A stretch of DNA of 64,000 nucleotides from Simkania sp. (GCA_018333475.1 JAGXTH010000021.1:4723-68722); one strand, 5' to 3'. Shown: positions 18,584-45,726, numbered from the stretch's first letter. Made by a program: numbers and translations. The notes: generated from the sequence alone by a model not told the origin.

Positions 18584-18589
18584 AAGAGC

Positions 18590-27477: not shown

Positions 27478-28747
27478 AAAAATAATAGTTTATTTATTAG
27501 TTTTTGCTTTTATTGCATTTAATGCGGGTCAGCTTTTTTCTGAGGAGGATCCTTTGAACCGATCTTCTTTGCAATTAGAAACATTGATTGAGGAAGTTTT
27601 GAGACGTAATCCGAACCTAGAAGCAGCGAAGGAACGCATTCAGGCCGCAGCTGAAGTTGTCCCTCGAGTTCAAGTGATCGATGATCCTGAATTTAGATTT
27701 ATGAGCGATTTTAATAACTTTAAATCCAATAGCGAATTTCTCCCCATGCTTCAATATCAAATTTCTCAAACGTTTCCTTTCCCTGGAAAACTTGGATTAA
27801 AAGGCAAAGTAGCTGCTGAGATTCTTAAACAATTTCAAAACGCTAAAATTACTACAGCGAAAGATTTAATTGTTCAGGCAAAAAAAATATATTTTAAGTT
27901 AGTTTTCAATCAATCATCTTTATTGATTAACGAAAACAATCGCGAAATAGCAAAAAACATCATAGATGACAGTTTATCCTTATATAGGTCAGGCACAAAA
28001 GGTTATGAAGAGGTCATAAAGGCCCAAATAGAACTACAAACTTTGGATGAAGAGCTATTAACAATCGAAGCAGAGCGTATTTTTATTGTTTCGATGCTCA
28101 ATGCCATCCTCAATCGACCTCAAAATGAGCCAATAGGCCAAGCAGTAGAAGTCGTAAGCTCTCCAACGCATCTTCCGTTTCAAAGGTTAGAAGCGATTGC
28201 GATGCAGCAGCGTCCAGAGTTAAAAGAACTAAAAGCAATGGTAATGGAACAAGAAATGATGGCTAAACTTGCTAAGAGAGAGTATTTCCCCGACATAACA
28301 ATCGCAGCAGGTTACGAGCAAATGACCAAAAATCTAAGTGATAATGCCTGGGAAGCAAGCATTTCATTTAAAATTCCTCTTTGGGTAGGTCAAAGGCAAA
28401 GGCGGCAAGTTCGCGAAGCTAAAGCGAAGGCATCGGCCAATACTAATGCACTTCTAGGAATGAAAGCGATGATTCAAGGTCAGATTAAAGATATCCTTGG
28501 AAAGCTCAAGGCAGTCGAAGAAAAACTTCTCTTATATGAAACAGGTTTACTTCCTAAAGTTTTGGAAGCTCTTAAAGCTGCTGAAATTAGTTATCGAACT
28601 GGAAAAGGGGATTTTTTGATTCTTCTCGACACCCGTAGACAATACCAAAATATCGAATTGACCTTTGAGGGAATCAAAGCTGAAAGAGAAACACTGCTCG
28701 CTGAATTAGAGCGTGCGGTTGGAGTGCCTTTGGAGGAAATACAATGA
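27461..28747 (+). CDS. TolC-family outer membrane efflux protein (CusC/CzcC-like)
   Basis: 428 aa, signal/TM-like N-terminus and two OEP-type coiled repeats. First gene of a three-gene RND operon with overlapping stops and starts. Confidence 0.75.
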
Positions 28748-29883: not shown

Positions 29884-32800
29884 TCGGTAAACTCATCGAA
29901 CTCAGTGCAAGAAATCGCCTTATCGTTTTTATTATTACTGGTCTTGTTTTGATCTGGTCAGTGTGGACGATTCGTAAAACCCCATTGGATGCTCTACCTG
30001 ATCTATCCGATGTCCAGGTGGTCATATTTACTGAATGGATGGGACGCAGTCCCAATCTTATAGAAGATCAAATTACTTATCCCATTGTGACGACTTTTCT
30101 TGGAGCTCCAAAAGTGAAATTAGTCAGGGGTTTCACTATGTTTGGGATGTCTTTTGTCTCGGTAATTTTTCAAGATGGTACGGATCTTTACTGGGCACGG
30201 AGTCGCACACTTGAATACTTGTCTAAAATACAAGGGCAATTGCCTGAAGGAGTAACGCCCATAATAGGACCTGATGCAACCGGTGTTGGATGGGTATTTG
30301 AATATGCTCTCATTGATGAATCAGGAAAATATAACCTTCAAGAGCTGCGCAGTTTTCAAGACTGGTATTTGCGCTATTGGCTTCAATCCGTTCCAGGAGT
30401 TGCTGAAGTTGCAAGTGTGGGAGGCTATCAAAAAGAATATCAAGTAGAGATCGATCCGACGAGACTTCAAGCTTTTGATCTTTCGATTGCCGATATTAAA
30501 GAAGCAGTTCGCCTATCTAATGAAGATGTCGGAGGTAGAGTTATCGAAATGGCCGAACATGAATATGCCGTACGCGGGCGTGGGTATATTACGAATCCAG
30601 AGATGCTTGAACAGGTCGTAGTGGGGACTGATCAAAAAGGAACCCCCATTCTCATCAGAGACATAGGACGTGTCCAGATTGGAGGGAATATTCGTAGGGG
30701 ACTTGCGGAGCTCAATGGGGAAGGAGAAGTAGTAGGTGGGATTGTTGTAATGCGATTTGGCGAAGACACAGCGAAAGTCATTGATCGAGTCAAAGGAAAG
30801 ATCAAGGAAATGGAGCCCTCTTTTCCTCCGGGAATAAAATTAGTGACCACTTATGACAGGTCCACTCTGATCAGGAATTCTGTAAACACTCTATCAGAGG
30901 CATTGATCGAAGAAATTATCATTGTTTCCTTGGTCATTTTGATCTTTCTCTTCCATTTTCGATCTACCCTTGTCTCTATTATCACTTTGCCGATTGCGAT
31001 CATGATCTCTTTTATCCCGATGTATTACATGGGAATTAATGCCAATATAATGTCACTTGCAGGAATCATCATCGCCATAGGAGATATTGTCGATTCTGCC
31101 GTTATCATGACGGAAAATGCCCATAAAAAATTAGAGCAGGAAGGGGGAAAAAGGCCACGAGTTGAACTGATCATTGAAGCAGCAAAAGAAATCGGCCCCA
31201 GCATTTTTGCCGCACTCTTGGTCATTGTTGTTGGATTTCTTCCCGTTTTTGTTCTTCAAGAGCAAGAAGGGCGCCTATTTTCTCCCTTGGCTTATACCAA
31301 AACATTCTCCGTTGTTTTTGGAGCGCTTCTTGGAGTGACTTTGGTTCCTGCACTTATGGTCACGTTTATTCGGGGGAAAATCAAGCCTGAAATGAAAAAT
31401 CCAGTCACAAGAGTTTGCATAGCTGCCTATAAACCTATCCTACGATTTTGCATGCGTTTTCGGTATGTTGTAGTATCAGGATGTCTTCTTCTCATCCTTG
31501 CCACCATTCCCATCTACTACAAACTAGGGTCTGAATTTATGCCGCCTTTAGATGAAGAGACGATTCTCTTCATGCCGATTACGACACCGGGAATCTCTAT
31601 TGAAGCTGCCAAACAGCTGGTGCAGACACAAGATAAGATTTTACGCAGTTTTCCGGAGGTTCAATCTGTTTTTGGCAAAGCGGGCAGAGCCGAAACCCCC
31701 ACAGACCCGGCTCCACTTTCAATGATTGAAACTGTCATTACCTTAAAACCAAAATCCGAATGGCGTAAAGGCATGACCAAGGATAAATTGATTGAAGAAA
31801 TGGACCAGGCTCTTCAATTTGTGGGCGTTCAAAATGCTTTTACAATGCCCATTAAAGCCCGTATTGACATGTTGACTACGGGCATCCGTACTCCTATTGG
31901 AATCAAAATCTTCGGAACAAATTTAGCAGAAATTGCATTGCTTGGAGAAGATTTAGAAAAGATACTTAAAAATGTCCCTGGCACACGCAGTGTGTATGCA
32001 GAACGCGAAATGGGAGGGTTCTTTATTGATTTTATTCCAAACCGCGAGGCTCTTGCACGTTATGGGCTCACAATCATGGATGTGAATAATATTGTTGAAA
32101 CAGCGATTGGAGGTATCGATGTAAATACAACAACAATAGAGGGACGTGAAAGATATAAAATTAATGTGCGTTATCCTAGAGAATTGCGCAATGATATTGA
32201 TAAGTTAAAACAAGTCCTTGTTCCGATTCAGGTGAAGTCAGAAGCTATGGGACGCGTAGCTCATGTTCCACTTGGACAGCTTGGTGAAATTAAAGCAACA
32301 ATGGGACCTCCTATGATCAAGGACGAGATGGGGTCATTAAGCGGTTGGGTCTATATTGACATCGAAGGCCGAGATATTGGGGGATATGTTAAGGATGCAA
32401 AAAAAGTCGTCGCTCAAAACTTAAAACTTCCTACAGGATATTACCTCAAATGGACCGGTCAATATGAGTTTTTAGAAAGGGTTCAAGCGCTAATGAAAGT
32501 AGTCATTCCTCTTACCTTGTTGATTATTGCATTCATTCTTTATCTCAATTTCAGGGGGATCGCGCAAACTCTAATTGTCATGCTCTCTGTTCCTTTTGCT
32601 GCAATTGGCGCCATTTGGCTCTTGTTCTTTGTGAATTATAACACCTCAGTTGCCGTTTGGGTTGGCATGATTGCTTTATTGGGCACAGCAGCGGAAACGA
32701 CCGCCATCATGGTTGTGTATCTAGATGAAGGATTTAAAAAATGGACAGAAGGGGGGCGGATAAATTCTCAAGAGGATCTGTTAACCATGACGGTTGAGCA

Positions 32801-33035
32801 CGGAGCCTCTAGAGTAAGACCTTTAATCATGGCTGTTGCTCTCAATATCTTCGGACTTCTTCCCATCATATGGAGCGGAGGCGTTGGATCGGATGTTGCT
32901 AAACGTATTGCTGCTCCTTTATGGGGAGGGCTCATTTCGTTGACACTTCTCACTTTATTCGTGGTCCCAGCAGTCTATGTTATTTGGAGAAGCATTCAAT
33001 TTCGAAACATCAAATTTGTGTCCAAAAAAGTTTAG
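29880..33035 (+). CDS. Heavy-metal efflux RND pump, CusA/CzcA family
   Basis: 1051 aa, 12-TM architecture. N-terminal LDALPDLSDVQVVIFTEW and other blocks are characteristic of the HME-RND (CusA/CzcA) family. Confidence 0.88.
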   Translation: MIGKLIELSARNRLIVFIITGLVLIWSVWTIRKTPLDALPDLSDVQVVIFTEWMGRSPNLIEDQITYPIVTTFLGAPKVKLVRGFTMFGMSFVSVIFQDGTDLYWARSRTLEYLSKIQGQLPEGVTPIIGPDATGVGWVFEYALIDESGKYNLQELRSFQDWYLRYWLQSVPGVAEVASVGGYQKEYQVEIDPTRLQAFDLSIADIKEAVRLSNEDVGGRVIEMAEHEYAVRGRGYITNPEMLEQVVVGTDQKGTPILIRDIGRVQIGGNIRRGLAELNGEGEVVGGIVVMRFGEDTAKVIDRVKGKIKEMEPSFPPGIKLVTTYDRSTLIRNSVNTLSEALIEEIIIVSLVILIFLFHFRSTLVSIITLPIAIMISFIPMYYMGINANIMSLAGIIIAIGDIVDSAVIMTENAHKKLEQEGGKRPRVELIIEAAKEIGPSIFAALLVIVVGFLPVFVLQEQEGRLFSPLAYTKTFSVVFGALLGVTLVPALMVTFIRGKIKPEMKNPVTRVCIAAYKPILRFCMRFRYVVVSGCLLLILATIPIYYKLGSEFMPPLDEETILFMPITTPGISIEAAKQLVQTQDKILRSFPEVQSVFGKAGRAETPTDPAPLSMIETVITLKPKSEWRKGMTKDKLIEEMDQALQFVGVQNAFTMPIKARIDMLTTGIRTPIGIKIFGTNLAEIALLGEDLEKILKNVPGTRSVYAEREMGGFFIDFIPNREALARYGLTIMDVNNIVETAIGGIDVNTTTIEGRERYKINVRYPRELRNDIDKLKQVLVPIQVKSEAMGRVAHVPLGQLGEIKATMGPPMIKDEMGSLSGWVYIDIEGRDIGGYVKDAKKVVAQNLKLPTGYYLKWTGQYEFLERVQALMKVVIPLTLLIIAFILYLNFRGIAQTLIVMLSVPFAAIGAIWLLFFVNYNTSVAVWVGMIALLGTAAETTAIMVVYLDEGFKKWTEGGRINSQEDLLTMTVEHGASRVRPLIMAVALNIFGLLPIIWSGGVGSDVAKRIAAPLWGGLISLTLLTLFVVPAVYVIWRSIQFRNIKFVSKKV

Positions 33036-33078
33036 TATTTGATGGGAATAGATCTATTTTTCGGATAAATTCTCCTTT

Positions 33079-36000
33079 TTATCTTCTCTCATAAATACAG
33101 TTCGCAGTAGCTCGAATGAAAAAATCCTCAAAGGGAAAATGGGCAATGAGCTCCGTTTCAGTCCTGGGAAAGGATTTGAAAAAAAGAGGGCTAGCGACGA
33201 AAAGAAATTTTTTTCTCGCCCGGCTGATCGAAACGTTGAATCTGCGATAGTCTTTCAAAAAGGCGCTGTGGAGGCTCTCTCGATCTGACACTGTAGTGGA
33301 GAAAAGCACGAGATCGAATTCTTGACCTTGCATGCGCTCTACCGTATCGATTTTGGGATGTCTGATGGAAAAGGGAAGGGTTTCTTTCAGGGCATTGAGG
33401 ATTGTATTGTTTTGGAGTCGATGCGGAGAAATAATGCCGATTTCATCGATGGGAAAAGAGTAGTCTAAGGTGAGACGTTTGACTGCCTGCGCGATCCAGA
33501 GGGCCTCTTCTTTAGAAGACTGAAGATTTCCTTCATGCTCCACAGGCACAACAACTAATGGTTTGAGCGGGTCGAGATATGCGTCGATGGAGTCGGCAAA
33601 CAGAGGGAAATGCGGCAGCTCTAGTCTTTGATCTGCTGCGGAGCTTTGAAGCTCTTGGTCATACCAATGCCGACTGACAAATTGGCAAATCAGATCATTC
33701 ATGCGGTAAGTTTCATTCAATCGAAGGTGATGTTGAGGGCCGAAGCGAGAGATGAGTTCCGCTAAGATGGAACAAGCGGGGATATCTGCCGTCACAATAG
33801 GGGCTAGTTGCTGGGTATCTCCATAGAATAGGGCATTCCCTTTGCCAAATACGAGACTTAAAAGTGCGTAGGAAGGGAGCACTTGCGAGGCTTCGTCAAA
33901 AATAACCCAGTCGAAAACTCGCGGGAATTGCTTGTCTTCGAGGAGTTGATAGACGCCAAATCCTGTGGCGCCGAGAATAAAGCTTGTGTTTTGCATAAGC
34001 GGTTTACCGTCTTGCAGCGGCTCTACGCCAGACTTTGCCTCAGCAAAGCGTCCATATTTCCAGATAGGGATTTTTTCTTTTTGGTCGAGAGTGCGCGCGA
34101 CTTTGAGCAAAATTTGATCGATGGCTTGGTGTGTGAGTGCTGTCACCAAAATTTTGATCGGACGATGGATAGATTTTGCATGAGCAATAAGGGCGATCAA
34201 TGTCCAGACGAGAAGATGGGTTTTGCCGGTGCCTGGAGGGCCTTCGATGAGGCCTATGTTTTTTAAAAATGGGAAGAGAAGAGCCTGTTTCTGCATTGAA
34301 TTTAGATCCGCTCTTTCGGCGTGACAGGAATACCATTGCTCTACCCACTCTGCCGCCATTGTTAGGGAATTTTTTCCATGGCCGTGGAGCATATGGATGA
34401 GCTCAGGTCTAAATTTAGGGTCTTTTAATCGATGTAAAACAGTTTCGATTTTGGGCGCATTCCAGTCTGTCGCACATTCATCTATGGCGTATAATTGGTT
34501 TTTGCTGAGGGGCATTCTGTCAGACAAGGACTGAACGGAAAGGGTCCCTTCTTCGGGAGAGTAGGAAGTAAGGATGACAGAAAAGCCGTCTTGAATCTGC
34601 GTACTATTCGCAATCGATAATTTGAGAAAGTCGCCGACTCGAAATTTGGCAATAGGCGCTTTTGGATCGATTGAAAAGAAGTAGCGAAGCTCTCGCTCTT
34701 CTGAAACGACGCCTAAAAAAACTAAGGGGCCGATGGCGCGAAACTGTTCTACGCGCGTGGGCAAGGGTTTTTTCTGAAAAGCTAACGTAGCAAAGGTGCG
34801 CTCTTCCCATTCCTGACGTTGCGTGAAGAGGTAACTATCAATAAGACCCGTCGGAGGCGGCACTAAGGAGCGGATACATTTTATATGGGAGGCGCACCAA
34901 CTCCAAATTTGTTTGCATACGTCAGGGGAGACGCACACATCGTCGTGGTATAGACTGATCGGCGGAGGTGGGTTATCCATAAGGCCTAAGCACCTACCCA
35001 CCTGGGTTGCGGTGAGACGCCCATCGACAGGCCAGATAAAGTGTTTTTGCAGAAAAGACTGGATCGATGGCCAGTCATCGACCTTTGGAGGAAAATCGAT
35101 GGACTCGGATTCGACACAGACAATCGCTGGCACATAAGTGGGCACCTGACTTTTCAACAAAGTTTCTTGATAACAGTAAGAAAAGTAGCGGCAGGAGGTA
35201 CAGCTGGAGTTCAAGGAGTATTGGTTGGGAGGTTTCATTGAATCGGCTCGCCATCCAGCGATGAGATGGGGCATCCAACTTGTAAAATGGGCTAGCGCGA
35301 AGGGAGTCCGTTTTTGCTCGGCTCCGCTGCGGTGGACAAGACCTGCGCAATCGGAAATTGTCACGGGAGCTCCCTCTAAAAAGCGCTCGAGTAAGTAGAC
35401 GTAAAACGCAAGTCGCCATTTCTGGGTATAGGAGAAATTTTCCTGATCTTTGATGTCCCACACCTCAAGACAAACATGGGAGCCTTCGTATTTCAGATAG
35501 ATAAGATCAGGACTTCCCCTCATTGGGAAGGGGTGATCGATTGTGAGTTTTGCTCGCGCTAAAAATAGAGAGGTCTGGCTGGCAATTACCTCGTCAATCG
35601 CCTGTTTCAACGTAAAATCAGCAGTTTCGAAGCGTACATTTTCTAATGTTTCGAAGACCTGTTTTTTAAAGTCGCTTTTTTGCCAAGCCTTTTGAAGGCG
35701 AGGATGTGGCTCTATGGAAAACCCAACACGCTGAAAGTGAGCCAATCTCGGACATATTTTTTGCGCAACATAGTTTTGTATCTGACTCGCTGTCAACCCG
35801 CGATCCACATCATGAGGTATTTCTGGAAACGAGACCTGCCCCCACGCCTGTCTCTCATCTTTGAAGGACCAGGGCTTGCCCTGCAGAGGGATGAGCTTCT
35901 CTGTCAGGAGACTGTCGCTCTGAAGCGGTGGAGGCTTTGGGCTAGATTCTGCTGCGTACTTTTCAAAATGCTCCAACACTCTCAGATCTAGGAGAGCAGA

Positions 36001-37875
36001 ACAAATCTCTTTTTTTTGAAGATCCTCCGGCAGTGAAGAGAGCCAGCTGTTCCACGAAAAGGCCTGTCGCAAAAGAAGTAAATGGGCGTCTACCCACTCT
36101 TGGAACAGGAGCTCGGTAGAGGGAAGCGTTAGGGTTTCGAATGGGATCCACTCATTGCTTTCAATGCCAAGCTCATCAAAACGGACAAATAGTCCTTCGA
36201 TTTTAGCGGACAATTGATGTTTGATTTGGGTGTAAAGGATAAAATTTCCAACCGTACCCAAAAACGTTTTGTAAGCGTAGGCGCCACTCCTCAGGCGATG
36301 CACATAAAGGCCATCTTTGTCTTGGGCGTAAGGTTGCCTTGCCTTCTCTAACAAGCGCCTCGTGCGAGTAAGCATTCCTTGCGGCAGGTAGCCACCTAAC
36401 AAAATGGATCTCATAGCTTGTGCTACTTCGAAAGAAATCGGCGCTCCGCAACCACACCAAGAGAGTTCCTTAACTATAGGTTGATCTGATACTTCGACGA
36501 AGACCTCTCTAGAGGCTTTCTTTTCCTCAATCTGGAGCAATTTCAATCCTTTGCCAGTGAGTTGAAAAATATCGCCAATCTCTAGCTGCTTGACGACAGA
36601 TAAGGGCAATGAGGCGATCACCTCTTTTTCTAAAATCACCTCGTATTCTTCATCTGCCGGAGGAAAATTGCTCCAAATCTGCTGTCTTTGCAAAGCAATC
36701 TTATAGCGCCATCCGCCAGAAAATAAACCTGACTCTTGTCTTGACTGCAGCCAATCCTTGACGACCATCTTTTCCATAATAGAAGGCAGATCGGCTGCGT
36801 TAAAAAGCGCATTTAACGAATTGCCTGAGATGGCTTTTTTTGCATAGAGACACGATAAAATTTGCTGAAACAACACGCTATAGTGATTTGCCGGAAGCCG
36901 TTTTTCTAGCTTATTTTTCAAGGCATGCTCAAATAGAGCGAGAAATCGAAGGAGATGACGCTCTGCCTCGGCACCATAGCAGACGCCCCAAAATTTCAGG
37001 GTTTTTTGTCTGCGGTTTCCCCTTCCGATTCGCTGTAAAAAGGCCGTTGTCGAAGGTGGCGGCCCTATCAAGACAACACCGTCGATATCTCCGATGTCGA
37101 TGCCCATCTCTAACGTACTCGTGGCGATGCAAAGGCTTTCTTTGCGAGCGCGAAAAGAAGATTCAATGAAACGCCGCTCTTTAGTAGAAAGATTCGAATA
37201 GTGAAGAAGAACATTGTTAGAAAACCTCCCCTCATAATTCAAAATTTCAAATAATTGCTCACATTTTTTGCGGCTATTTGCAAAGATCAATAACTTTTTG
37301 CAATTACCAAGAGATAATAGATCATCAAAAAACGAAACCAATTCTCGCCTCTCGTCTACAATGTGGGCCCAACAAGGCTCTAGTTTCCGGATCGCAGATT
37401 GTTGATAATAAAACACATTCTTTAGATGAAAAAACGTGCTAATTTCATCCGGATCTCCAGTGGTGGCAGATAAGGTTAATATTTGCAGATCCCCTCTCGA
37501 TTGCACTTCAAGTCGACGACGCAGATAGAACAGCTGAGATCCGCGCTCCGTTCGAAGAAAGGTGTGTACCTCATCGATAATCAGGACATAAACATGTTTT
37601 AAAAAATATTTATTTTCCGGATTTTGGCTGCCCAAAAGGACATCTAACGACTCTGGAGTGAGGATCAAAAGGTGGGGTTTTGCGTCTTGTAGAGTTTTTC
37701 CATCCCCTGTGCGAATTCCCGATTTTAGCCCTAACTGTTTATACAGAGGTTGAATCCTCCGATGCATATCCAAAGCTAATGCACGTGTGGGGACGATGTA
37801 AAGGATAGTGAAGTGGCCAGGATGGGTCATCAGTCGCTCTGTTGCAGGAGCCAATACCGCTTCTGTTTTCCCCAA
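33079..37875 (-). CDS. Giant fusion: SF2 DExH (Lhr-like) helicase, Cas4/RecB-like PD-(D/E)xK nuclease with Cys cluster, and SF1 (AAA_11/AAA_12, Dna2/Upf1-like) helicase. The reading frame is open upstream to 38025.
   Basis: SF2: (AGTGL)GKTEA, VPTRALA, IIDEVH, LSAT, TSTLEMGIDIG, QRIGRGNRR. Nuclease: SPDLIYL...LEVWDIKD...QKWRLAFYVY...CTSCRYFSYC (about nt 35160-35530). SF1: GPPGTGKTH (about 34218-34242), VIFDEASQV (about 33881-33907), GDTQQLAP, ETYRMN, VERMQGQEFD, FNVSISRARKK. The listed TTG start (37875) falls inside the Walker A motif. Confidence 0.8.
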   Translation of the reverse strand: MGKTEAVLAPATERLMTHPGHFTILYIVPTRALALDMHRRIQPLYKQLGLKSGIRTGDGKTLQDAKPHLLILTPESLDVLLGSQNPENKYFLKHVYVLIIDEVHTFLRTERGSQLFYLRRRLEVQSRGDLQILTLSATTGDPDEISTFFHLKNVFYYQQSAIRKLEPCWAHIVDERRELVSFFDDLLSLGNCKKLLIFANSRKKCEQLFEILNYEGRFSNNVLLHYSNLSTKERRFIESSFRARKESLCIATSTLEMGIDIGDIDGVVLIGPPPSTTAFLQRIGRGNRRQKTLKFWGVCYGAEAERHLLRFLALFEHALKNKLEKRLPANHYSVLFQQILSCLYAKKAISGNSLNALFNAADLPSIMEKMVVKDWLQSRQESGLFSGGWRYKIALQRQQIWSNFPPADEEYEVILEKEVIASLPLSVVKQLEIGDIFQLTGKGLKLLQIEEKKASREVFVEVSDQPIVKELSWCGCGAPISFEVAQAMRSILLGGYLPQGMLTRTRRLLEKARQPYAQDKDGLYVHRLRSGAYAYKTFLGTVGNFILYTQIKHQLSAKIEGLFVRFDELGIESNEWIPFETLTLPSTELLFQEWVDAHLLLLRQAFSWNSWLSSLPEDLQKKEICSALLDLRVLEHFEKYAAESSPKPPPLQSDSLLTEKLIPLQGKPWSFKDERQAWGQVSFPEIPHDVDRGLTASQIQNYVAQKICPRLAHFQRVGFSIEPHPRLQKAWQKSDFKKQVFETLENVRFETADFTLKQAIDEVIASQTSLFLARAKLTIDHPFPMRGSPDLIYLKYEGSHVCLEVWDIKDQENFSYTQKWRLAFYVYLLERFLEGAPVTISDCAGLVHRSGAEQKRTPFALAHFTSWMPHLIAGWRADSMKPPNQYSLNSSCTSCRYFSYCYQETLLKSQVPTYVPAIVCVESESIDFPPKVDDWPSIQSFLQKHFIWPVDGRLTATQVGRCLGLMDNPPPPISLYHDDVCVSPDVCKQIWSWCASHIKCIRSLVPPPTGLIDSYLFTQRQEWEERTFATLAFQKKPLPTRVEQFRAIGPLVFLGVVSEERELRYFFSIDPKAPIAKFRVGDFLKLSIANSTQIQDGFSVILTSYSPEEGTLSVQSLSDRMPLSKNQLYAIDECATDWNAPKIETVLHRLKDPKFRPELIHMLHGHGKNSLTMAAEWVEQWYSCHAERADLNSMQKQALLFPFLKNIGLIEGPPGTGKTHLLVWTLIALIAHAKSIHRPIKILVTALTHQAIDQILLKVARTLDQKEKIPIWKYGRFAEAKSGVEPLQDGKPLMQNTSFILGATGFGVYQLLEDKQFPRVFDWVIFDEASQVLPSYALLSLVFGKGNALFYGDTQQLAPIVTADIPACSILAELISRFGPQHHLRLNETYRMNDLICQFVSRHWYDQELQSSAADQRLELPHFPLFADSIDAYLDPLKPLVVVPVEHEGNLQSSKEEALWIAQAVKRLTLDYSFPIDEIGIISPHRLQNNTILNALKETLPFSIRHPKIDTVERMQGQEFDLVLFSTTVSDRESLHSAFLKDYRRFNVSISRARKKFLFVASPLFFKSFPRTETELIAHFPFEDFFIRATANCIYERR

Positions 37876-37984
37876 CCCCGTACCGGCTTGGAGTATGACA
37901 TCTCTTTTTTCAAGAACCGGTTGGATGAGCGCTTTTTGTGCAGCAGTTAAAGAAGCAAATCTCCCGAAAAAGGGACGATATGTG

Positions 37985-39100
37985 TTAGGAAGCTGTTCTA
38001 ATGCAGATAATGTCGAGTTGATTGATCAACGCCTTTAGTTTGAATCTCGTTTCTTGGCTGTTCAGTTTTTCGAGCAGGACTCTCATTTGTTGTTTGATTT
38101 CCAAAGTTTTAGCTGCAATGTCGATTTGGTAAGCCTCCGCGTAGAGATTGATGAGACGATCCTGCAGAAATTCCCAGCGGGCTAAGGAGGAATCCTGCAG
38201 TCGGATGATCTGCAAACTCTTCCAGGCATCAAAGTGATTTTGGGGAAATTGCGGCGCTTCACCGCCATATTCCTCACAGCGCACTTTATCGAAAAAAGCT
38301 TCTGTGAAAGCGAACACAGGGTATACAAAGCCGCCATGTTGGAAAAACTGGCTGAGAATTTCATAGCTCTTGATTCGGGCACTGAGACGCCCTTGTGCTA
38401 TCGATTCTGCCTCGTCGAAAAACAACACCAATCCCTTGTAGCCCATAGCATTGAGGAGCTTACCTAAAGATTGGACCATTTGGACGTGTGGGGCATTGCC
38501 GCGAATAGTCAGCGCTTGCTCTCGGTATCCCCCTACCTCCCTAGCCTTCAAAATTTGTTTTAGATGAGCGAGGGGCAAATTATGACCCATTAATGCCTGT
38601 TCTAACCAATGGCCGAAGTCTTTGGGATTTAGCCCGTTCTTCCCTCCTCCTCTTTTGATAGGCAGCTTATTTTTAGAAAGCATGGCTTGCAAAATCATGC
38701 GAAAACGATGAGGCATATCATCCAACACCTCTAATGAACTTTTTCCCCATGCTTCAACAAACGACTCTCCGGTCGGCAAAGAGAGATTCTTCATTAAAGA
38801 TTGATACACAACCGAAAATTGATAAAAAGGTACCTCTCTTACATCTAGCTGAACCAAGCTTGCTGCATATCCTTGAGATAGTGCTTGCCTTTGTAAATAG
38901 TTCAAGTTATGGGATTTTCCCTGCCCATACGAACCACAAATGCACAAATGACTCGACTGCCCCTTCTCTAAAGCTTCAAGCCCCTTTGAAAAGTTTTGGA
39001 TGATGACCTCATCCTCCATTGTTAAACGATCTACCGCGACCGGGTCAAAGAGCCCGGCTCTTAACCGTTCAATCGCTCGTCGTACAGGAAAAATTCCCAT
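37985..39100 (-). CDS. BrxD/DUF2791-like P-loop ATPase (paralog 2)
   Basis: N-terminal RRAIERLRAGL, Walker A GSYGQGKSH (about 38908-38935), Walker B LVLFFDEAE (about 38410-38436). Same layout as the upstream paralog. Confidence 0.6.
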   Translation of the reverse strand: MGIFPVRRAIERLRAGLFDPVAVDRLTMEDEVIIQNFSKGLEALEKGQSSHLCICGSYGQGKSHNLNYLQRQALSQGYAASLVQLDVREVPFYQFSVVYQSLMKNLSLPTGESFVEAWGKSSLEVLDDMPHRFRMILQAMLSKNKLPIKRGGGKNGLNPKDFGHWLEQALMGHNLPLAHLKQILKAREVGGYREQALTIRGNAPHVQMVQSLGKLLNAMGYKGLVLFFDEAESIAQGRLSARIKSYEILSQFFQHGGFVYPVFAFTEAFFDKVRCEEYGGEAPQFPQNHFDAWKSLQIIRLQDSSLARWEFLQDRLINLYAEAYQIDIAAKTLEIKQQMRVLLEKLNSQETRFKLKALINQLDIICIRTAS

Positions 39101-39101
39101 C

Positions 39102-40364
39102 TTATGTATCCCACGCAGGCTCGAGCTTCTGCGTTTTTTCTAGTTCCATTTCCTTGTGGCTGGCGAGTAGATTTTCGGTGAGATTAAAATCTTGTTGAGC
39201 ATGCCCCTGTTCCGCCATATCTAGGAAACGGATCATCTGCTTGATGAATAGGCGCACTTCACTCAAAATCCCCATTTCCTCTTGTTTTTTGCACATATCT
39301 GCAATCAAATTCTCAGATACCGTGTCCCGAGCCTCCCAACGATAGGAGATTTCGTGGATTTTTCGTAAACAGATGCCGAGATCAATCAATTCTTGCCGCT
39401 TGAGCGGCGTTTTATGCAAATCAATGAGCGTGCCACGGTAGTTCAGGGCCTCAGAATCCCCAACCGAACGGATGCGGCTCCAGAGCGCGTCATAGGATTT
39501 AAATCCTTTTTCCGACAAAAGCACGTCAGGAATGAGAGAAAAAAACAGCTGCAAATATTCAGAATGTTCGGCGTTATCCATCAACAAGCGAATGTTCTCG
39601 TAGGCTGCGCTGCGAATGGAAGTCCCTTGCACCAACACCGTCTCTAGCTCATCTAAGAGGATAATCAATCCCTTATGGCCCGTGAGTTTCAAAAAGGAGA
39701 TCAATGACTGCAAAAACGTCTTAGCTGTAGATTTATTCAAAACTTCAAAGATGTGAAACTTTGTCAGATTTTTTTTGGGGATTTTTTTCCCTTCCAACCA
39801 CTGATACAACAGCTCTTGTTTCGTTACTGTCTCTTCTGGTAGCTCATTTTCAACAGGCGGGCGTAAAAGTCCCATCAGAGCATTGACAAAGTTGATATCC
39901 AACTTGGGCACTTGGCGCAAAGACTGAAAGAAAGTTTCGCGATCAACGTCTACTCTTTTTTGTTTTTCGACCCACTGCTGCACTAACGACCGGATGCCAA
40001 CTCCCTCAAATCGCCCCCGCAGTTGCAAAACGATCTCTTGGTAGATGAGCTCGAACTTGTGGATAGGAATGTCGCGTGTTAAAACAACAAAAGAGGATGC
40101 AAACTGTTTTTGCAGTGCGAGCTGGCGGATCACCGACATAAAATGGGTCTTCCCATCTCCATAATCGCCGTTGATAAATCGAACCTTGCCTCCGCCCTCC
40201 GCAATGAATCCATCCAAATCTTCTTCGACGAATCGCAACCAGTTTTGGCGCCCGACAGTGAAAAACGCCACATACTCTGTGGGGACAAGCCCCTTTCTCA
40301 AGCTCTCTATGATGGCTCTTGCTTGGAATGGTTTCAGCTGTTCAATATCTTCTTTTGTAATCAT
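39102..40364 (-). CDS. BrxD/DUF2791-like P-loop ATPase (paralog 1)
   Basis: ARAIIESLRKGLVP...FFTVGR, Walker A GDYGDGKTH (about 40143-40169), Walker B LIILLDELE. This is the pattern I associate with Pfam DUF2791 (BrxC/BrxD family). Confidence 0.65.
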   Translation of the reverse strand: MITKEDIEQLKPFQARAIIESLRKGLVPTEYVAFFTVGRQNWLRFVEEDLDGFIAEGGGKVRFINGDYGDGKTHFMSVIRQLALQKQFASSFVVLTRDIPIHKFELIYQEIVLQLRGRFEGVGIRSLVQQWVEKQKRVDVDRETFFQSLRQVPKLDINFVNALMGLLRPPVENELPEETVTKQELLYQWLEGKKIPKKNLTKFHIFEVLNKSTAKTFLQSLISFLKLTGHKGLIILLDELETVLVQGTSIRSAAYENIRLLMDNAEHSEYLQLFFSLIPDVLLSEKGFKSYDALWSRIRSVGDSEALNYRGTLIDLHKTPLKRQELIDLGICLRKIHEISYRWEARDTVSENLIADMCKKQEEMGILSEVRLFIKQMIRFLDMAEQGHAQQDFNLTENLLASHKEMELEKTQKLEPAWDT

Positions 40365-40365
40365 A

Positions 40366-41262
40366 TTAGCCCTTTACGAAGGAAGCGTGAGAAAGGTGCC
40401 GTTTTTCCCCCATTTGATCGATGAGCCACAGCGACTTAATTCTTCCAGGAGCTAACCGGATGCAATATCCGCCAACTGTCGAAGAAACGTCCGAAGTAAA
40501 AAAGCGCCAGAGATCGACAGCAAACTGCTCAATGCTATAGCCTTTAAACTTTGCCTTGTCCATATTTTGTAAAAAAGCCTTACTCTGCAGCGACCAAACA
40601 TAATCAGTGTACAATTGATGAATAGAAACCGCATCCCCAATCCCCTGCTTCTCTTTTTTTACGATCTCTTGATAGCATGAAAATAAAGAATCAATGAATG
40701 GCTGTGGTTCAAAAACAGAGTCGTACAGCTTCCGTTTGAGGTTCAAAGCGGCAGACACAATGCGTTTTGGATCGAACGATTTGATCGTGAGCTCACCTAG
40801 CTTTGTCAGTCTTGTAGCAAAATTTACCTCGCCTTCAATCCCCTTCAGCACAAAAAATCGAGGCAGGTCGATCTCCATAGGAAGTCCCGCTTTCTCTGCG
40901 GCTTGCATCAAACCATTCTTAAATTCCGACTTATACTGTTCTATCTGTTCGTCCGCGTACACCTGCAACTGAGAGAAAATCGATGCGCAGCCTTCAAGAC
41001 TTGCGTCCTCTAATACAACGCTTGCCTGCTTGCTTTTTAACAGCTCATCCAATTGAAAAAAGTCATTCTTTTCAATGCACTGGATGCATTTTTTGATAAA
41101 ATCGGAGCTTTTTTGCCGCCGATTTAGCTCCTGCTGAAATGGCTTTACAATCTCTCCGAGATGATGCTTGGCATCTTCTACATTTGTTGACTGTTCCAAT
41201 AAGGTCATACGCACTCGCCCTTTTATTAAGGGGACGAGCGTAGCCAACAATGGAAATAGCAT
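40366..41262 (-). CDS. Hypothetical protein, first gene of the helicase operon (start may be the internal ATG at about 41208)
   Basis: 298-aa ORF ending 1 nt before the next gene's start. No family recognised. Confidence 0.5.
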   Translation of the reverse strand: MLFPLLATLVPLIKGRVRMTLLEQSTNVEDAKHHLGEIVKPFQQELNRRQKSSDFIKKCIQCIEKNDFFQLDELLKSKQASVVLEDASLEGCASIFSQLQVYADEQIEQYKSEFKNGLMQAAEKAGLPMEIDLPRFFVLKGIEGEVNFATRLTKLGELTIKSFDPKRIVSAALNLKRKLYDSVFEPQPFIDSLFSCYQEIVKKEKQGIGDAVSIHQLYTDYVWSLQSKAFLQNMDKAKFKGYSIEQFAVDLWRFFTSDVSSTVGGYCIRLAPGRIKSLWLIDQMGEKRHLSHASFVKG

Positions 41263-41717
41263 TCAACAGAAATGTTTGGACTGAAATCCCCTTGCCCTTT
41301 CTATCCAAATCGTGACCTGGGTAAGGGTGCTTTTTAAAGAATGGATCACGGGAGAGTGTAAATAGCTTGCGAAAATCATTGCTCAATGCATATCGGAATT
41401 CCTCCATTTTTAACAGGGAATTTAGTGCATTTTGTTACCATACTTTCACGATCGCTTTGCATATGCATCTTGGGGGATGCAACCCCAAAAAATCGCATCG
41501 GACACCAAGGACACTCAATCAAGCGTTCAACCTAGGCAACAGATTTTCATATTGTTTAATGGCGCCCGTGGTCTAACATTGATCACTCAGGACTCACAAC
41601 CTACTGGTTTCCGAATCCAAGTCTGACATGCTCTGCGAAAATATTTGGCTTCTCTAGACAAAAAACTCCACTTACCCTATACCATCTTGATTACCGGTCG
41701 TACTGCCGGGTGGTTTC

Positions 41718-43061
41718 ATGCAAATATTTACTCTGGCTGAGGTGGCTTTATGGCTCAACCTCCCGGTTATTCTTTCGCGTCTCCCTGTTCAGAGCGTCGT
41801 TACAGACAGTCGTGAAGTTCAGGGTGGTGAGCTCTTCGTTGCTCTTAAAGGTGAGCGCACGGATGGACATACATTCTTGGAAGAAGTTGCTAGTAAGGGG
41901 GCAATTGCCGCCTTAGTTGCAAACGACTATCAAGATTCGGATTATGGTCTTACGCTCATTCGAGTCCCAGATGTTTTAGCCGCTCTACAAGAGATGGCTA
42001 AAAAGCGATTAAGCGGAGTACAACCTAAAATCATTGGAGTGACGGGGTCTGTCGGAAAAACAACGACGAAGGAGTTCATAGCAACGTTGCTTTCAAAACG
42101 TTATCGCGTTGGAAAATCTCCTGGGAATGCCAATTCTCAAGTGGGTGTTCCCAAGACCATTCTCAATATTAGAGGGGACGAAGAAGTTCTAGTTCTAGAA
42201 ATGGGAATGACCGAAGCTGGACAGATCTCTAGATTGATAGAGATGGCCCCTCCAGATATCGCGGTCATTACTACCATTGGTCATGCGCATATGGAATTTT
42301 TCCCCGAAGGCATGGAGGGCATAGCAGCTGCTAAAGCGGAGATTTATGCACATCCTTTAACGCAATGGGGAGTTGCTAATATTCGGACCAAGGAATTTCC
42401 TAGTGTTCTTGCAAGCGGGTGCTGTCAAAAGCTCTTTGTAGGCACGGTCTCTGAGTCTGATTGGAAGTTTTCGATGGAAGAAGAGGGGATAAGGCTAGAA
42501 ACAAAACAAGGTATATCTCCTTGTATTCAGTTGCCTTTTTCTGCCAGTCATTTAGTTGAAGACTTCGCTCTTGCTGCTGCTGTAGCGAGTTTGTTCGGAA
42601 TAAGTTTTGAAGAGATTGCTAGTCAATCCAAGGAATTAGCTACCTATAAAAACCGTTATGAGATCCTTAACAAAGAAGGCGTATTGTTTCTCAATGATTC
42701 CTATAATGCGAGCCCAGAATCTATGTGTGCAGCTCTTGATAACTTGCCGACTAGACATGGTAAAGTGATAGGGGTCTTTGGCGAGATGAAAGAGTTGGGA
42801 AGAAGTTCCGTGGAGGCACATCGTAAAGTAGCTTTGCATGCACTGGATAAAATTGATTATTTACTTTGTTTTGGAAAGGGGTGTATTCCGATGGTTGAGG
42901 TGTTTAGCTCCTTCAGTAAGTCTGTGGAATTGTTTCGAGATTTTACCCTTTTAAAGAGACGAGTGTACGAATTGGCGGAAGAAGGAGATCTTGTCCTGCT
43001 TAAGGGAGCGAATTCCTGCCAACTTTGGAAGGTGCTTGACCACGAGGAGAGTGTTGTATGA
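41718..43061 (+). CDS. murF: UDP-N-acetylmuramoyl-tripeptide--D-alanyl-D-alanine ligase
   Basis: SVVTDSREV..GELFVALKGERTDGH and GVTGSVGKTTTKE Mur-ligase motifs. Followed by mraY with a 4-nt overlap. Confidence 0.9.
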   Translation: MQIFTLAEVALWLNLPVILSRLPVQSVVTDSREVQGGELFVALKGERTDGHTFLEEVASKGAIAALVANDYQDSDYGLTLIRVPDVLAALQEMAKKRLSGVQPKIIGVTGSVGKTTTKEFIATLLSKRYRVGKSPGNANSQVGVPKTILNIRGDEEVLVLEMGMTEAGQISRLIEMAPPDIAVITTIGHAHMEFFPEGMEGIAAAKAEIYAHPLTQWGVANIRTKEFPSVLASGCCQKLFVGTVSESDWKFSMEEEGIRLETKQGISPCIQLPFSASHLVEDFALAAAVASLFGISFEEIASQSKELATYKNRYEILNKEGVLFLNDSYNASPESMCAALDNLPTRHGKVIGVFGEMKELGRSSVEAHRKVALHALDKIDYLLCFGKGCIPMVEVFSSFSKSVELFRDFTLLKRRVYELAEEGDLVLLKGANSCQLWKVLDHEESVV

Positions 43062-44269
43062 TACCCCTTTTTCTGCATTTCATCGCACTGCATTTTTCCC
43101 TAAAGGTACCCGCTGTATTTTTTTATGCATCTACACGAATGATGCTGGCTGCTCTTACGGCTGGGTGTTTCACTATTTTTTTTGGACCAAGGTTCATTCA
43201 GAAATTGTATGCGTTAAAAATGGGGCAATCCATTCGTGTAGCTGATTGTCCGGGATTGGCCCAGTTACATGAGAAGAAAAAGGATACTCCCACGATGGGA
43301 GGTATTCTTATTCTCTCTTCCATGTTGACGAGTCTTATCTTATGGATGGATTTAAGCTCGGTGTTTACGGTGATCTTGGCTATTACGACGATTTGGCTGG
43401 GATTGATCGGCGGCACGGATGATTATTTAAAGCTCAAACATAAAAATTCTAAGGGATTGAGTGCTAGACGTAAAATGATCTTCCAGACGTTATTTGCAGT
43501 GTTTCTTTCTTTATACCTATACTGCCCGATGGTGACTAAAACGGTCGCTTTTGAAGATCTTTTTGTGTCCCCAACGGCCAAGGAACACGTGATTGAAGAT
43601 GCGCAGGATGTAATGCAGCAGCGCTCTTTACAGCAATATAGTGGGCAGTATTACTTTCCCTTCCTAAAAGACCCTCTTTTTGTGTTGAGTGGTACAGGAT
43701 TATTTGTTGCCTTCGTCATTACTTGGTTTACTGTAACCGGGGCTTCAAATGCGGTCAATTTGACAGATGGTCTGGATGGCCTTGCAGCAGGATGTCTTGT
43801 CATGGTCAGTGTTGTGTTGGGCATTTTCGGGTTTTTTTCTAACAATATTGAGATGGCGCGCTATCTCAATATTCTTTACATAGAAGGCAGTGGAGAGATC
43901 GCAGTGTATCTATTTGCCATGGCAGGGGCTTGCTTAGGATTTCTCTGGTATAACGGTTATCCTGCGCAAGTGATCATGGGAGATACGGGGTCTTTAGCCC
44001 TTGGAGGAATTCTAGGGGTTTCTGCAGTATTGATGCGGCGAGAGTTATTATTAGCGCTCATTGGTGGTATCTTTGTTATTGAGACACTCTCTGTGATTTT
44101 ACAAGTGGGTAGCTATAAGCTCCGTAATCGTAAACGTATTTTTCTTTGTACTCCTATTCATCACCATTTTGAATATAAAGGGTGGCCTGAGACGAAAGTG
44201 GTCATCCGTTTTTGGATCGTGGGCTTTCTTTTTGTCATGATCGGTCTTGCCTCTCTTAAGTTTCAGTAA
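43058..44269 (+). CDS. mraY: Phospho-N-acetylmuramoyl-pentapeptide transferase
   Basis: Polytopic membrane protein with GTDDYLKL, NAVNLTDGLDGLA and PIHHHFE motifs. Confidence 0.93.
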   Translation: MIPLFLHFIALHFSLKVPAVFFYASTRMMLAALTAGCFTIFFGPRFIQKLYALKMGQSIRVADCPGLAQLHEKKKDTPTMGGILILSSMLTSLILWMDLSSVFTVILAITTIWLGLIGGTDDYLKLKHKNSKGLSARRKMIFQTLFAVFLSLYLYCPMVTKTVAFEDLFVSPTAKEHVIEDAQDVMQQRSLQQYSGQYYFPFLKDPLFVLSGTGLFVAFVITWFTVTGASNAVNLTDGLDGLAAGCLVMVSVVLGIFGFFSNNIEMARYLNILYIEGSGEIAVYLFAMAGACLGFLWYNGYPAQVIMGDTGSLALGGILGVSAVLMRRELLLALIGGIFVIETLSVILQVGSYKLRNRKRIFLCTPIHHHFEYKGWPETKVVIRFWIVGFLFVMIGLASLKFQ

Positions 44270-44434
44270 CCTCTTTTGAGACTAAGGCTTTGTCGATTTT
44301 GGGGGGTATTTTGATCGTTTTTCGGCTCTTTTTTTAGGGTAATATACGGATGTTGATATAACCCAAAAAAAAAAGAGTTGAAAAGAGTCTTAAAAGAACC
44401 CGAAAATCGACGGAAGCTTAATTTCGAAAGAGGT
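44270..44434. repeat. Degenerate copy of the about 150-bp palindromic intergenic element (MITE/REP-like family; perfect copy at 50821-50970)
   Basis: Imperfect long inverted repeat centred near 44350. Its arms align at roughly 80 percent by eye to the arms of the 50821-50970 element (CTCTTTCGAAAyTAAGCTTC..TCGATTTT..GGGTAATAT). Confidence 0.65.
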
Positions 44435-44448
44435 CTAGTAAGAAAACT

Positions 44449-45726
44449 ATGCAAACAGCACTTGTTCTTGGCCTTGGAGTGAGCGGAAAAGCTGCCTGCC
44501 AATTACTGCTTAAGAAAGGGTATCATGTCATTGCTGTAGATGATCGTATGCAGCAGTGCCCGGAGGTCGAAGCTTTAGGGGTACGCGTGTTTAATACGCA
44601 ACATATTGTAGATCTTGATGCTTTGGACCTTGTTGTCTCGTCTCCAGGAATTGCGCCAACGCACCCCATCTATCAACAGGCAATTTTAAAGCATATTCCA
44701 GTCATGGGAGAAGCTCAGTTAGGACTTAAAGAATTATCTCAGCCATGCATTGGTATTACTGGAACTAATGGAAAAACGACAGTGACCTCTATGGTGACAC
44801 ATATTCTTCATCATGCGCAACATAAGGCTAGATCGTTGGGTAATATTGGCGAATCTCTTTGTCTTTACGCTCTTTCTCCTAAGATAGATGAGATTCTTGT
44901 GATTGAACTCAGTTCGTACCAGCTGGAAACCATGAATGGGGAGATGCTAGATACTGCAGTGATATTGAATATCACGCCAGACCATCTTGATCGTTATGGT
45001 AGGATGAAAGACTATGCTAAAGCAAAATGGAATATCCAGCATTGCTTGAAAAAAGAGGCACCTCTTATTGTTTATGATAAGGTATTAGAAGAGTGGAAAG
45101 AATTCCAGGAGATCGAGAGAGTAATTGCTTATACGTACCCCTCTCTCGTAGTTAATTTACCTGAAGAGTATACAAGAAATGGACGCCATGATGGGAATAA
45201 TTTACTCGCCGCTTGGCTTCTGGTAAAAAAATTTGGCGTTACAGAAGAGCAATTTATAGGTGCATTGAAAGAGTTTAAAAAGCCTTCTCATCGTATTGAA
45301 TATGTGGCAACCATTGGCGGTGTGCAGTATTTTGATGATAGCAAGGGTACAAATCTTGATGCTGTTGCTCGCGCTGTGGAAGCCATGAATGGGCCTGTTT
45401 GGCTGATTGCTGGTGGAGTGGATAAAGGGGCATCCTATGCCTTTTGGAAGGAAGCATTCAAGGATAGGGTAGTGAAAATTTTTGCTTTGGGAGAGGCCAA
45501 AGAGAAAATCTCTAGAGAAGTTGGTGTGTTTTGTGAGGTGGAAGAGGTGGAATCGTTAGAGCAGGCTATAAGGAGAGCTACCCGGGAAGCTGCATCTGGC
45601 AGTAATGTCCTTCTTTCCCCTGGCTGTTCAAGTTTTGATATGTTTATTGATTATGCCCATCGAGGCGATGAATTCCAGCGTATTGTAAGAAGCATAGAAG
45701 AAGAAAGGAGGAAAGAAATTATATGA
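44449..45726 (+). CDS. murD: UDP-N-acetylmuramoylalanine--D-glutamate ligase
   Basis: VLGLGVSGKA Rossmann N-terminus and GITGTNGKTTV Mur-ligase P-loop. Position between mraY and ftsW. Confidence 0.9.
   Translation: MQTALVLGLGVSGKAACQLLLKKGYHVIAVDDRMQQCPEVEALGVRVFNTQHIVDLDALDLVVSSPGIAPTHPIYQQAILKHIPVMGEAQLGLKELSQPCIGITGTNGKTTVTSMVTHILHHAQHKARSLGNIGESLCLYALSPKIDEILVIELSSYQLETMNGEMLDTAVILNITPDHLDRYGRMKDYAKAKWNIQHCLKKEAPLIVYDKVLEEWKEFQEIERVIAYTYPSLVVNLPEEYTRNGRHDGNNLLAAWLLVKKFGVTEEQFIGALKEFKKPSHRIEYVATIGGVQYFDDSKGTNLDAVARAVEAMNGPVWLIAGGVDKGASYAFWKEAFKDRVVKIFALGEAKEKISREVGVFCEVEEVESLEQAIRRATREAASGSNVLLSPGCSSFDMFIDYAHRGDEFQRIVRSIEEERRKEII

Follow-up and report, generated by a model that had tools for sequence, protein, structure and literature searches.

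What would two BrxD-family ATPases do beside a composite helicase-nuclease at a site where no core genes of a BREX (bacteriophage exclusion) system were found? The question is raised by a locus in a stretch of 64,000 nucleotides (nt) from a metagenome-assembled genome of Simkania sp., Chlamydiota (GCA_018333475.1 JAGXTH010000021.1:4723-68722); this whole stretch is called the window in the following, and positions are counted from its first letter. Across 33079-41262 it carries four minus-strand open reading frames (ORFs), here termed g1 to g4, in which neighbours are 1 nt apart or overlap, just as the initial annotation, made from the sequence alone, had described them. We interpret this cassette as a self-contained, horizontally mobile conflict system which targets nucleic acids (of phages or other mobile genetic elements) and which has its relatives in Shango and in the BrxD-BrxHI pair of type 2 BREX, and we assign to this interpretation a probability of roughly 0.55. 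The genes and the modules of g4 are the following:

g1: 40366-41208, minus strand, 280 amino acids (aa), first gene of the cassette; its ORF is open up to 41262 (298 aa)
g2: 39102-40364, minus strand, 420 aa, BrxD-family (DUF2791, ORC/Cdc6-type AAA+) ATPase
g3: 37985-39100, minus strand, 371 aa, second, divergent BrxD-family ATPase
g4: 33079-38022, minus strand, a helicase-nuclease-helicase fusion of about 1,647 aa; probable start codon ATC at 38022, frame open from 38025
g4, N-terminal module: 35965-37962, minus strand, BrxHI/SngC/Lhr-type superfamily 2 (SF2) helicase with its C-terminal accessory domains
g4, central domain: 35128-35820, minus strand, Cas4/RecB-family PD-(D/E)xK nuclease with a four-cysteine signature of the iron-sulfur (Fe-S) type
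g4, linker between the nuclease and the following motor: 34318-35127, minus strand, with a conserved FRVGDFLKLS stretch and without domain match
g4, C-terminal module: 33193-34305, minus strand, superfamily 1B (SF1B; Dna2/Upf1-type) helicase

The spacing is 1 nt both between g1 and g2 and between g2 and g3. The start of g1 had been placed at 41262 (298 aa) and had to be moved: the homologues and the NCBI record to which g1 is 100% identical ('hypothetical protein KGZ39_02020 [Simkania sp.]') begin at the second methionine, at 41208, which gives 280 aa.

Conservation of the gene order

A scan of a genome collection with the g1 profile yielded 52 loci, whose gene order was then checked by tblastn with the proteins of the window as queries. 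Order and strand were identical everywhere, and g1 always stood ahead of g2-g3. When only loci with enough sequence were counted at each step, g2 followed g1 in 47 of 48 loci, g3 followed g2 in 39 of 39, the BrxHI-like part of g4 was present in 32 of 34, and the complete four-gene cassette was found in 24 of 26. A failure of the four genes to be syntenic elsewhere had been named beforehand as a result that would speak against the whole proposal; these counts demonstrate that they are syntenic elsewhere.

Within Chlamydiota the 52 loci come from Simkania-like organisms, Parachlamydiales and Waddliaceae, and outside this phylum from Desulfobacterales, Desulfatiglandales, Latescibacterota, SAR324 and Candidatus Entotheonella, so that the spread is observably patchy; Desulfobacter latus AcRS2 is a cultured isolate that has the cassette. 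Measured against the window, the non-chlamydial copies have median identities of 48% (g1), 57% (g2), 39% (g3) and 42-43% (g4), and the catalytic motifs of both g4 motors, of the nuclease with its four cysteines, and of both ATPases are kept in 25-46 homologues from at least five phyla. In three contigs of metagenome-assembled genomes, L003 ('Acidobacteria bacterium'), L008 and L053 ('Legionellaceae bacterium'), g1-g4 are 64-93% identical to the Simkania copy (g1 of the contigs labelled Acidobacteria or Legionellaceae being 64-86% identical to that of the window), far closer than any non-chlamydial locus; most likely they are chlamydial contigs which were mis-binned, or else very recent transfers.

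Damaged or interrupted cassettes were also met in several relatives. L001/L006 (Parachlamydiales, on a contig of 1.55 Mb) is frameshifted at multiple places and has 3 kb inserted between g3 and g4, this being a long-read assembly in which some of the frameshifts may be sequencing errors; in L050 an interruption of 1.3 kb divides g1 and one of about 1.5-2 kb divides g4; L013 has a 1-kb insert between g2 and g3, L048/L049 have inserts of 0.7-1.3 kb between g3 and g4, and L052 was counted in the same group. These interruptions could be insertions of mobile elements or decay.

Paired ATPases and a helicase-nuclease-helicase fusion

The proposal that g2 and g3 are two BrxD/DUF2791-like paralogues was borne out by searches with hidden Markov models (HMMs), a test whose failure had been named beforehand as evidence against it. 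PF10923 (BrxC_BrxD) matched g2 with 2.2e-56 (192 bits) and g3 with 6e-25 (88.5 bits), above the Pfam cut-off of 22.2, and NCBI names both of them 'DUF2791 family P-loop domain-containing protein [Simkania sp.]'. BrxD was the best PADLOC model for either protein (2.6e-43 for g2, 1.2e-22 for g3), followed by the weaker SngB (9.4e-34 and 2.6e-8, respectively). The two proteins share about 25% identity. Their Walker A sequences, GDYGDGKTH in g2 and GSYGQGKSH in g3, read as GxYGxGK[TS]H, in agreement with the initial annotation, and its other motif, the N-terminal R(R/A)AIExLRxG, is exact in g3 (RRAIERLRAG) and approximate in g2, which has one extra residue (RAIIESLRKG). Since this Walker A and the Walker B motif are invariant in 46 homologues of g2 and in 37 homologues of g3, both proteins are probably active ATPases.

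The preference for BrxD, together with that of the N-terminal part of g4 for BrxHI over every other PADLOC model, would be expected also if the cassette were a remnant or satellite of type 2 BREX (Pgl), that is, a BrxD-BrxHI pair left after the loss of PglW/X/Y/Z or acting in trans with a core elsewhere. Pfam was run on the ORFs of 150 aa or more in the 9.8-50.8 kb region of the window, and no PglZ, PglX, PglW or BrxA/B/C (PglY) was found among them, which upholds the earlier statement that the BREX core is not nearby; g3 (371 aa) and g2 (420 aa), both of the size of BrxD, were the only PF10923 proteins in this set. PglZ, PglX, PglW and BrxC were likewise not found in those neighbourhoods of relatives that were annotated with Pfam. 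Besides, g2 (145.6 bits) and g3 (79.5 bits) stay far under the 350-bit equivalog cut-off of NCBIfam BREX_BrxD (NF033438). Decay would not leave behind an order of four genes, among them a duplicated ATPase, g1 and a fused nuclease-SF1B part, that recurs in 24 loci. On the basis of this synteny and of the core genes not being found, the remnant explanation was rejected as very improbable.

The start of g4 required separate consideration. Its frame opens at 38025, as had been stated, and contains no ATG, GTG or TTG until 37875; the ORF with a canonical start would therefore span 33079-37875. Position 37875 falls inside the Walker A motif (AGTGLGKT), hence it is not the true start. Ahead of the conserved LPNTYR motif the sole candidate initiator is an ATC (38022-38020), which AAAGG precedes by 10 nt, and both elements are invariant in five loci of the Simkania clade (window 37985-38025; L003:13131-13251; L004:13140-13260; L005:5726-5846; L088:13195-13315), where the same stretch also encodes the C-terminus of g3. 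Starting from this ATC, g4 would share its first 38 nt with the 3' end of g3, read in the +1 frame with respect to the latter. A programmed +1 frameshift fusing g3 to g4 was considered and is not favoured, since in other clades g4 has a canonical start of its own (ATG, TTG or GTG) at the equivalent position. Judged from the sequence, g4 is thus probably a gene in its own right, encoding about 1,647 aa, with a putative ATC start that overlaps g3. Gene callers shorten this gene, one relative being called at 1,521 aa.

The architecture of g4 proved to be the triple fusion that had been suggested, namely an SF2 helicase, a Cas4-like Fe-S nuclease and an SF1 helicase, each domain being matched by HMMs or by motifs. 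With the isoleucine of the ATC taken as residue 1, residues 22-687 align with positions 21-687 of the 698 in the PADLOC BrxHI profile (2e-83), and the match of this part to SngC is weaker (6.7e-74); Pfam recognizes DEAD (1.5e-36) and Helicase_C (9e-17) here, and SF2 motifs I, II, III and VI are kept in 25 g4 homologues. The central domain, scanned alone, matches PDDEXK_1 (3.2e-6; 27.7 bits against a cut-off of 22) and the Cas4 model of PADLOC (2.5e-6), and the nuclease domain of 24 of the 25 homologues matches Cas_Cas4. C757, GxPDL at 836-840, D856-I-K858, Q867..Y874 and C941-x2-C944-x5-C950 are invariant or near-invariant in 25 full-length homologues. This set of cysteines and motifs reads as the signature of Cas4/AddB/Dna2-type iron-sulfur nucleases, and binding of an Fe-S cluster is predicted; the nuclease of AddB has such a cluster. 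When the nuclease profile was run against PDB sequences, the sole match was the designed WD40 protein Tako8, a spurious repeat match, therefore the assignment of the nuclease rests on Pfam, PADLOC and the motifs.

In the C-terminal module AAA_11 (2.7e-20) and AAA_12 (2e-30) were recognized by Pfam. PADLOC gave MkoA (8.4e-43) and MkoC (9.2e-35), these matches covering only the helicase core. Among solved structures Dna2 comes closest (3.2e-22), with Nam7/Upf1 and IGHMBP2 next. The SF1 motifs are invariant throughout, from the Walker A (GPPGTGKT) through DEASQ, GDxxQL and TYRM to the later ones. As the nuclease is N-terminal to the SF1B motor, the C-terminal two-thirds of g4 have the arrangement of Dna2, and this Dna2-type module sits behind a BrxHI/Lhr-type SF2 helicase in one chain. 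Full-length homologues in 24 loci measure 1,640-2,000 aa; the linker is about 100-130 aa longer in the Waddliaceae-type chlamydial and the non-chlamydial homologues.

Lhr-type and Dna2-type enzymes are repair proteins, and the best NCBIfam match of the N-terminal part of g4 is the ligase-associated DNA-damage-response DEXH helicase; together with the Dna2 match of the C-terminal part, this argues for a chromosomal role in repair or recombination, in which g4 would perform RecBCD/AddAB/AdnAB-like end resection or Dna2/Lhr-like processing of forks and flaps, with g1-g3 as its loader. On the other side, the nearest relatives at the level of families, BrxD/BrxHI and SngB/SngC, belong to anti-phage systems. 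The behaviour of the triad and the genomic positions of the cassette, described below, bear on the same choice.

The g1-g2-g3 triad and its partners

The three genes g1-g2-g3 form the conserved core of the cassette, and g4 is a modular partner, which some relatives have in a shorter form or lack altogether. A stand-alone BrxHI-like helicase is all that the fourth gene encodes in L009 (Chlamydiae; 726 aa) and in L049 (SAR324; 771 aa). L020 and L047 have only the triad, with no g4 nearby, and in L047 the triad is followed by an AAA_16+TPR protein of the STAND type; an Electrothrix locus (L062) also has the triad without g4. Exchange of the fourth gene is thus directly visible among these loci. 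Two PF10923 ATPases again come next after P0342, a distant relative of g1 which was recognized by the distant-family profile (E 1.6e-15) and is 25% identical to the A5 reference P0213, this value not referring to g1 of the window.

The most extended exchange was seen in 25 loci from soil metagenomes (L063-L087; the clearest being L070:3298-12206, L073, L076, L078, L064 and L065). A g1-like gene is there always followed by a g2-type and a g3-type gene, and a g4-like helicase was found in 0 of the 25. The first ATPase scores best with the g2 profile and the second with the g3 profile; since the two types can be distinguished in this clade as well, their duplication predates the split of the clades. 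Seven of the soil loci extend far enough upstream to show that the triad closes, at the 3' end, a conserved operon of eight genes, the members of which were identified by Pfam and PADLOC scans of L070 and of two ORFs of L078, and otherwise by the size and order of the ORFs:

gene 1: sigma54-type (RtcR/PspF-like) AAA+ ATPase
gene 2: small phospholipase D (PLD) nuclease (DrmC-like)
gene 3: weak BrxD-like ATPase, 400 aa
gene 4: HerA/mad8-like ATPase, 461 aa
gene 5: protein without assignment, 460 aa
genes 6-8: the triad of g1-like, g2-like and g3-like genes

PADLOC assigned no system to this operon, which appears to be a further candidate defence system, distinct and not yet described, having the triad in common with the cassette. 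The genes directly downstream vary among the soil loci: an AspBHI/Mrr restriction endonuclease in L078, an Eco29kI restriction endonuclease in L072, a Vsr endonuclease in L076, RmuC in L065 and DUF2130 in L064. In L055, a separate distant relative, it is a CHAT protease. Defence systems and defence islands typically show this pattern, a constant module whose effectors and neighbours change, and association of the triad with unrelated effectors and with restriction enzymes in the soil clade, like the loss or truncation of g4 in several lineages, counts against a repair function.

The member of the triad that has no relative among named families is g1. It had been described as a protein that could not be named, and it gave no match in Pfam, PADLOC or NCBIfam, nor to a known fold. 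The g1 profile reached only E 0.15 at best against PDB sequences. The family comprises 564 clusters at 90% identity, every one of them unnamed, and an exhaustive profile search collected 369 representatives at 50% identity, the majority of which make up a distant family of 270-290 aa with 15-26% identity; a Pfam scan of 49 of the distant relatives returned scattered single chance matches only, with TerB in 0 of the 49. The AlphaFold2 model of g1 is confident (predicted local distance difference test 89.6 and predicted template modelling score 0.75, from a 44-sequence alignment), and the C-terminal half modelled separately reached 92.8 and 0.87. According to the model a long N-terminal helical hairpin (residues 3-106) is followed by a small beta-sheet (112-142), a helical region (147-237) and a C-terminal three-stranded sheet. 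Foldseek found nothing at E<=0.001 for either model in PDB and BFVD; winged-helix domains (ORC1, Cdt1, Stn1) recurred as non-significant matches at E ~1, which are to be taken as a lead only.

The matches to ORC1 and Cdt1 bring in a further explanation, namely that the cassette is a maintenance or replication module of an integrative element, with a pair of ORC/Cdc6-like initiators, an adaptor and a helicase. The ATPases are indeed of the ORC/Cdc6 type of AAA+ proteins (PMC12839542), and one chlamydial relative adjoins an integrase and a DnaB helicase. Yet these Foldseek matches are far from significant, most loci show neither element boundaries nor an integrase, no g1 relative was found in the plasmid, phage and viral-contig collections, and the helicase is fused to a nuclease that is predicted to be active and of the Fe-S type. 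We regard such a maintenance role as improbable.

A further-reaching extension of the defence reading, which we hold only tentatively, would take the triad of g1 and two BrxD-type proteins as an ancient, self-standing sensor/loader of the ORC/Cdc6 style that defines a new family of conflict systems with interchangeable effectors. One effector might then be g4, as a one-chain analogue of RecBCD, and another the PLD nuclease with the HerA-like and sigma54-type AAA+ ATPases of the soil operon, and g1 might be a new fold that provides the contact with DNA or effector which BrxD lacks.

Genomic setting, proposed function and named systems

One flank of the cassette in the window is an RND (resistance-nodulation-division) efflux operon (OEP/HlyD_D23/ACR_tran, 27461-33035) and the other is the dcw (division and cell wall) cluster, with murF/mraY/murD at 41718-45726 and then ftsW, murG and murC, in line with the metal-efflux operon and murF block named earlier. 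The G+C content of the cassette (0.44-0.49) is slightly above that of the flanks (0.40-0.43). A promoter and terminator scan of 32800-41800 gave counts at or below the shuffle expectation, and no tRNA genes were found in the window. None of the relatives has the flanks of the window. L088 is flanked by DUF4143/AAA_14, SLFN_AlbA_2 + HATPase_c_4 and AAA_15/AAA_21 genes, and L089 by a phage integrase, DnaB and HTH_3/Peptidase_M78; the cassette of L002 is followed by a PIN protein and that of L009 by MazF. This variability of location gives indirect support to the view that the cassette is an accessory insertion, as the initial annotation had put it: cassettes of the relatives lie at other sites, some of them beside integrases. 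No empty site, insertion scars or boundary repeats were found.

Elsewhere in the window, a phage-type integrase (PF00589, 1.2e-31) lies at 20538-21623 on the minus strand. On one side of it come the P-type ATPase, the RND efflux operon and the cassette, which form one block, and on the other a second candidate system, at 9833-19978 on the plus strand, presumably the one that the initial annotation counted as its first. The latter has four proteins:

ClpB-like AAA_2 ATPase, 621 aa
Fer4_12 (radical-SAM-activase-like) protein, 223 aa
protein without family assignment, 462 aa
protein kinase + DUF4011 + SF1 helicase (AAA_11/AAA_12) + REase_MTES_1575 nuclease, 2,078 aa

The region of about 9.8-41.3 kb may be one composite genomic island with its end at the dcw cluster.

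In our proposal the probable mode of action of the cassette is that of Shango or of the BrxD-BrxHI pair, with the addition of a built-in effector. BrxD is an ORC/Cdc6-type AAA+ ATPase without DNA-binding domains, it forms a tightly linked ATPase-helicase dyad with BrxHI, and a proposed role for it is to load or activate this helicase (PMC12839542). By analogy, g2 and g3 would form a heteromeric ATPase, which together with g1 could act as an ATP-driven sensor/loader; this module would recognize foreign or aberrant DNA, through a feature of the invader or through damage, and load or license g4. The assumed complex, its target and the defence phenotype are what we infer from the relatives of these proteins. 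The sensor or adaptor role given to g1 is a guess, because the protein has no assignable fold.

Lhr-type SF2 helicases move in the 3'-to-5' direction, Dna2 and other SF1B helicases in the 5'-to-3' direction, and in RecBCD a single RecB-family nuclease is joined by two motors of opposite polarity. If the motors of g4 follow Lhr and Dna2 in this respect, g4 may be a single-polypeptide bipolar helicase-nuclease, the two motors of which would advance in one common direction, each on its own strand of a DNA end or fork, after the manner of RecB and RecD, and the Fe-S PD-(D/E)xK nuclease lying between them would degrade the unwound DNA.

Some observations weigh against a defence system. The guess on g1 itself is one of them. 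The mean column identity of g1 across phyla is 62%, unusually high for defence genes; the chromosomal copies of Desulfobacter and Latescibacterota lie among housekeeping genes; the cassette has no methyltransferase or other evident component for distinguishing self from non-self; and g1 relatives, as said above, did not appear in the plasmid, phage and viral collections. The repair explanation can claim several of the same points, the housekeeping flanks (to which the dcw cluster of the window may be added), the high conservation of sequence across phyla and the missing modification enzyme. It has to face, in turn, the patchy distribution, the position in the genome, which is not conserved, and the integrase, toxin or defence-type neighbours at some of the loci, in addition to the variable partners of the triad and the anti-phage relatives of its proteins. 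Altogether a repair function appears unlikely to us, and the conflict system is the reading we retain.

BrxD and BrxHI are the least understood components of BREX. In this cassette proteins of their type stand without the BREX core, with a nuclease effector and a defined partner, g1, thus they offer a simpler system for asking what BrxD-type ATPases do to Lhr-type helicases. The predicted design of g4, one chain with two motors and one nuclease for processing DNA ends, is open to biochemistry, Desulfobacter latus AcRS2 provides an experimental entry point, and the conserved triad can be used as a search handle for further combinations with effectors. Few defence systems have been recognized in the phylum Chlamydiota, and the cassette is common among its environmental members. 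It should be emphasized that new helicase/nuclease defence candidates are generally common; this one is a well-defined candidate that could clarify the roles of BrxD and BrxHI.

Neither PADLOC-DB 2.0, which has no g1 model, nor NCBIfam assigned a system to the cassette, and it is not described in the literature searched on BrxD/BrxHI, DUF2791, Shango, Dna2-like + Lhr proteins and chlamydial defence, though other databases or papers may name it; within these sources the earlier statement that no system of such composition has been described is sustained. The suggested link to the BrxD-BrxHI pair of type 2 BREX also holds as far as the best PADLOC matches are concerned, and it was refined in that the closest named system is Shango, beside BREX type 2. 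Shango consists of a TerB protein, an ATPase and a DEAD/DEAH helicase (SngA/SngB/SngC) and protects against phages by a mechanism that is unknown (10.1101/2022.05.11.491447; 10.1101/2022.11.11.516204). Its order, an accessory protein first, then a DUF2791/BrxD-family ATPase and then an Lhr-type DEAD/DEAH helicase, is that of the cassette as well. SngB is homologous to g2 and g3, and SngC to the N-terminal part of g4. The differences are that g1 matches neither SngA nor, at E<=0.01, the TerB family of Pfam, that there are four genes and two paralogous ATPases instead of three genes and one ATPase, that the stand-alone helicase of about 700 aa is replaced by one of about 1,647 aa with nuclease and SF1B modules, L009 and L049 being the two relatives that do keep the helicase by itself, and that BrxD/BrxHI models outscore SngB/SngC on g2, g3 and g4.

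Type 2 BREX shares with the cassette the best-scoring PADLOC, Pfam and NCBIfam families of g2, g3 and the N-terminal part of g4, and a BrxHI-type helicase gene placed directly downstream of the ATPase gene g3, which it overlaps; the cassette is unlike it in the core genes PglZ, PglX, PglW and BrxC/PglY, which were not found, in missing the equivalog cut-off of BrxD, and in having a duplicated ATPase, an extra g1 and a helicase carrying a nuclease and SF1B part. The Dna2/Nhi-type proteins also have a four-cysteine Cas4/RecB-family nuclease N-terminal to an SF1B (AAA_11/AAA_12) helicase, whereas significant sequence alignment to Dna2 was obtained for the helicase part only, g4 has an SF2 helicase in front, and it is operonic with BrxD-type ATPases. 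The likeness to RecBCD/AddAB/AdnAB, two presumably opposite-polarity motors with a RecB-family nuclease, is a functional analogy only: the motors of g4 are SF2 Lhr-type and SF1B, not SF1A and SF1B, they are on one polypeptide, homology is claimed for the nuclease superfamily alone, and Chi-like regulation is without evidence. MkoA and MkoC of Mokosh are both matched by the SF1 helicase core of g4, but MkoB, the PLD nuclease partner in that system, was not detected by Pfam in the cassette and the rest of the architecture differs.

The cassette is therefore not BREX type 2, not Shango as defined and not Mokosh. We place it in the BrxD/BrxHI-Shango lineage of ATPase-helicase defence modules, to which it adds the g1 family, the ancient two-ATPase triad and the proposed single-chain SF2-nuclease-SF1B effector as new elements.

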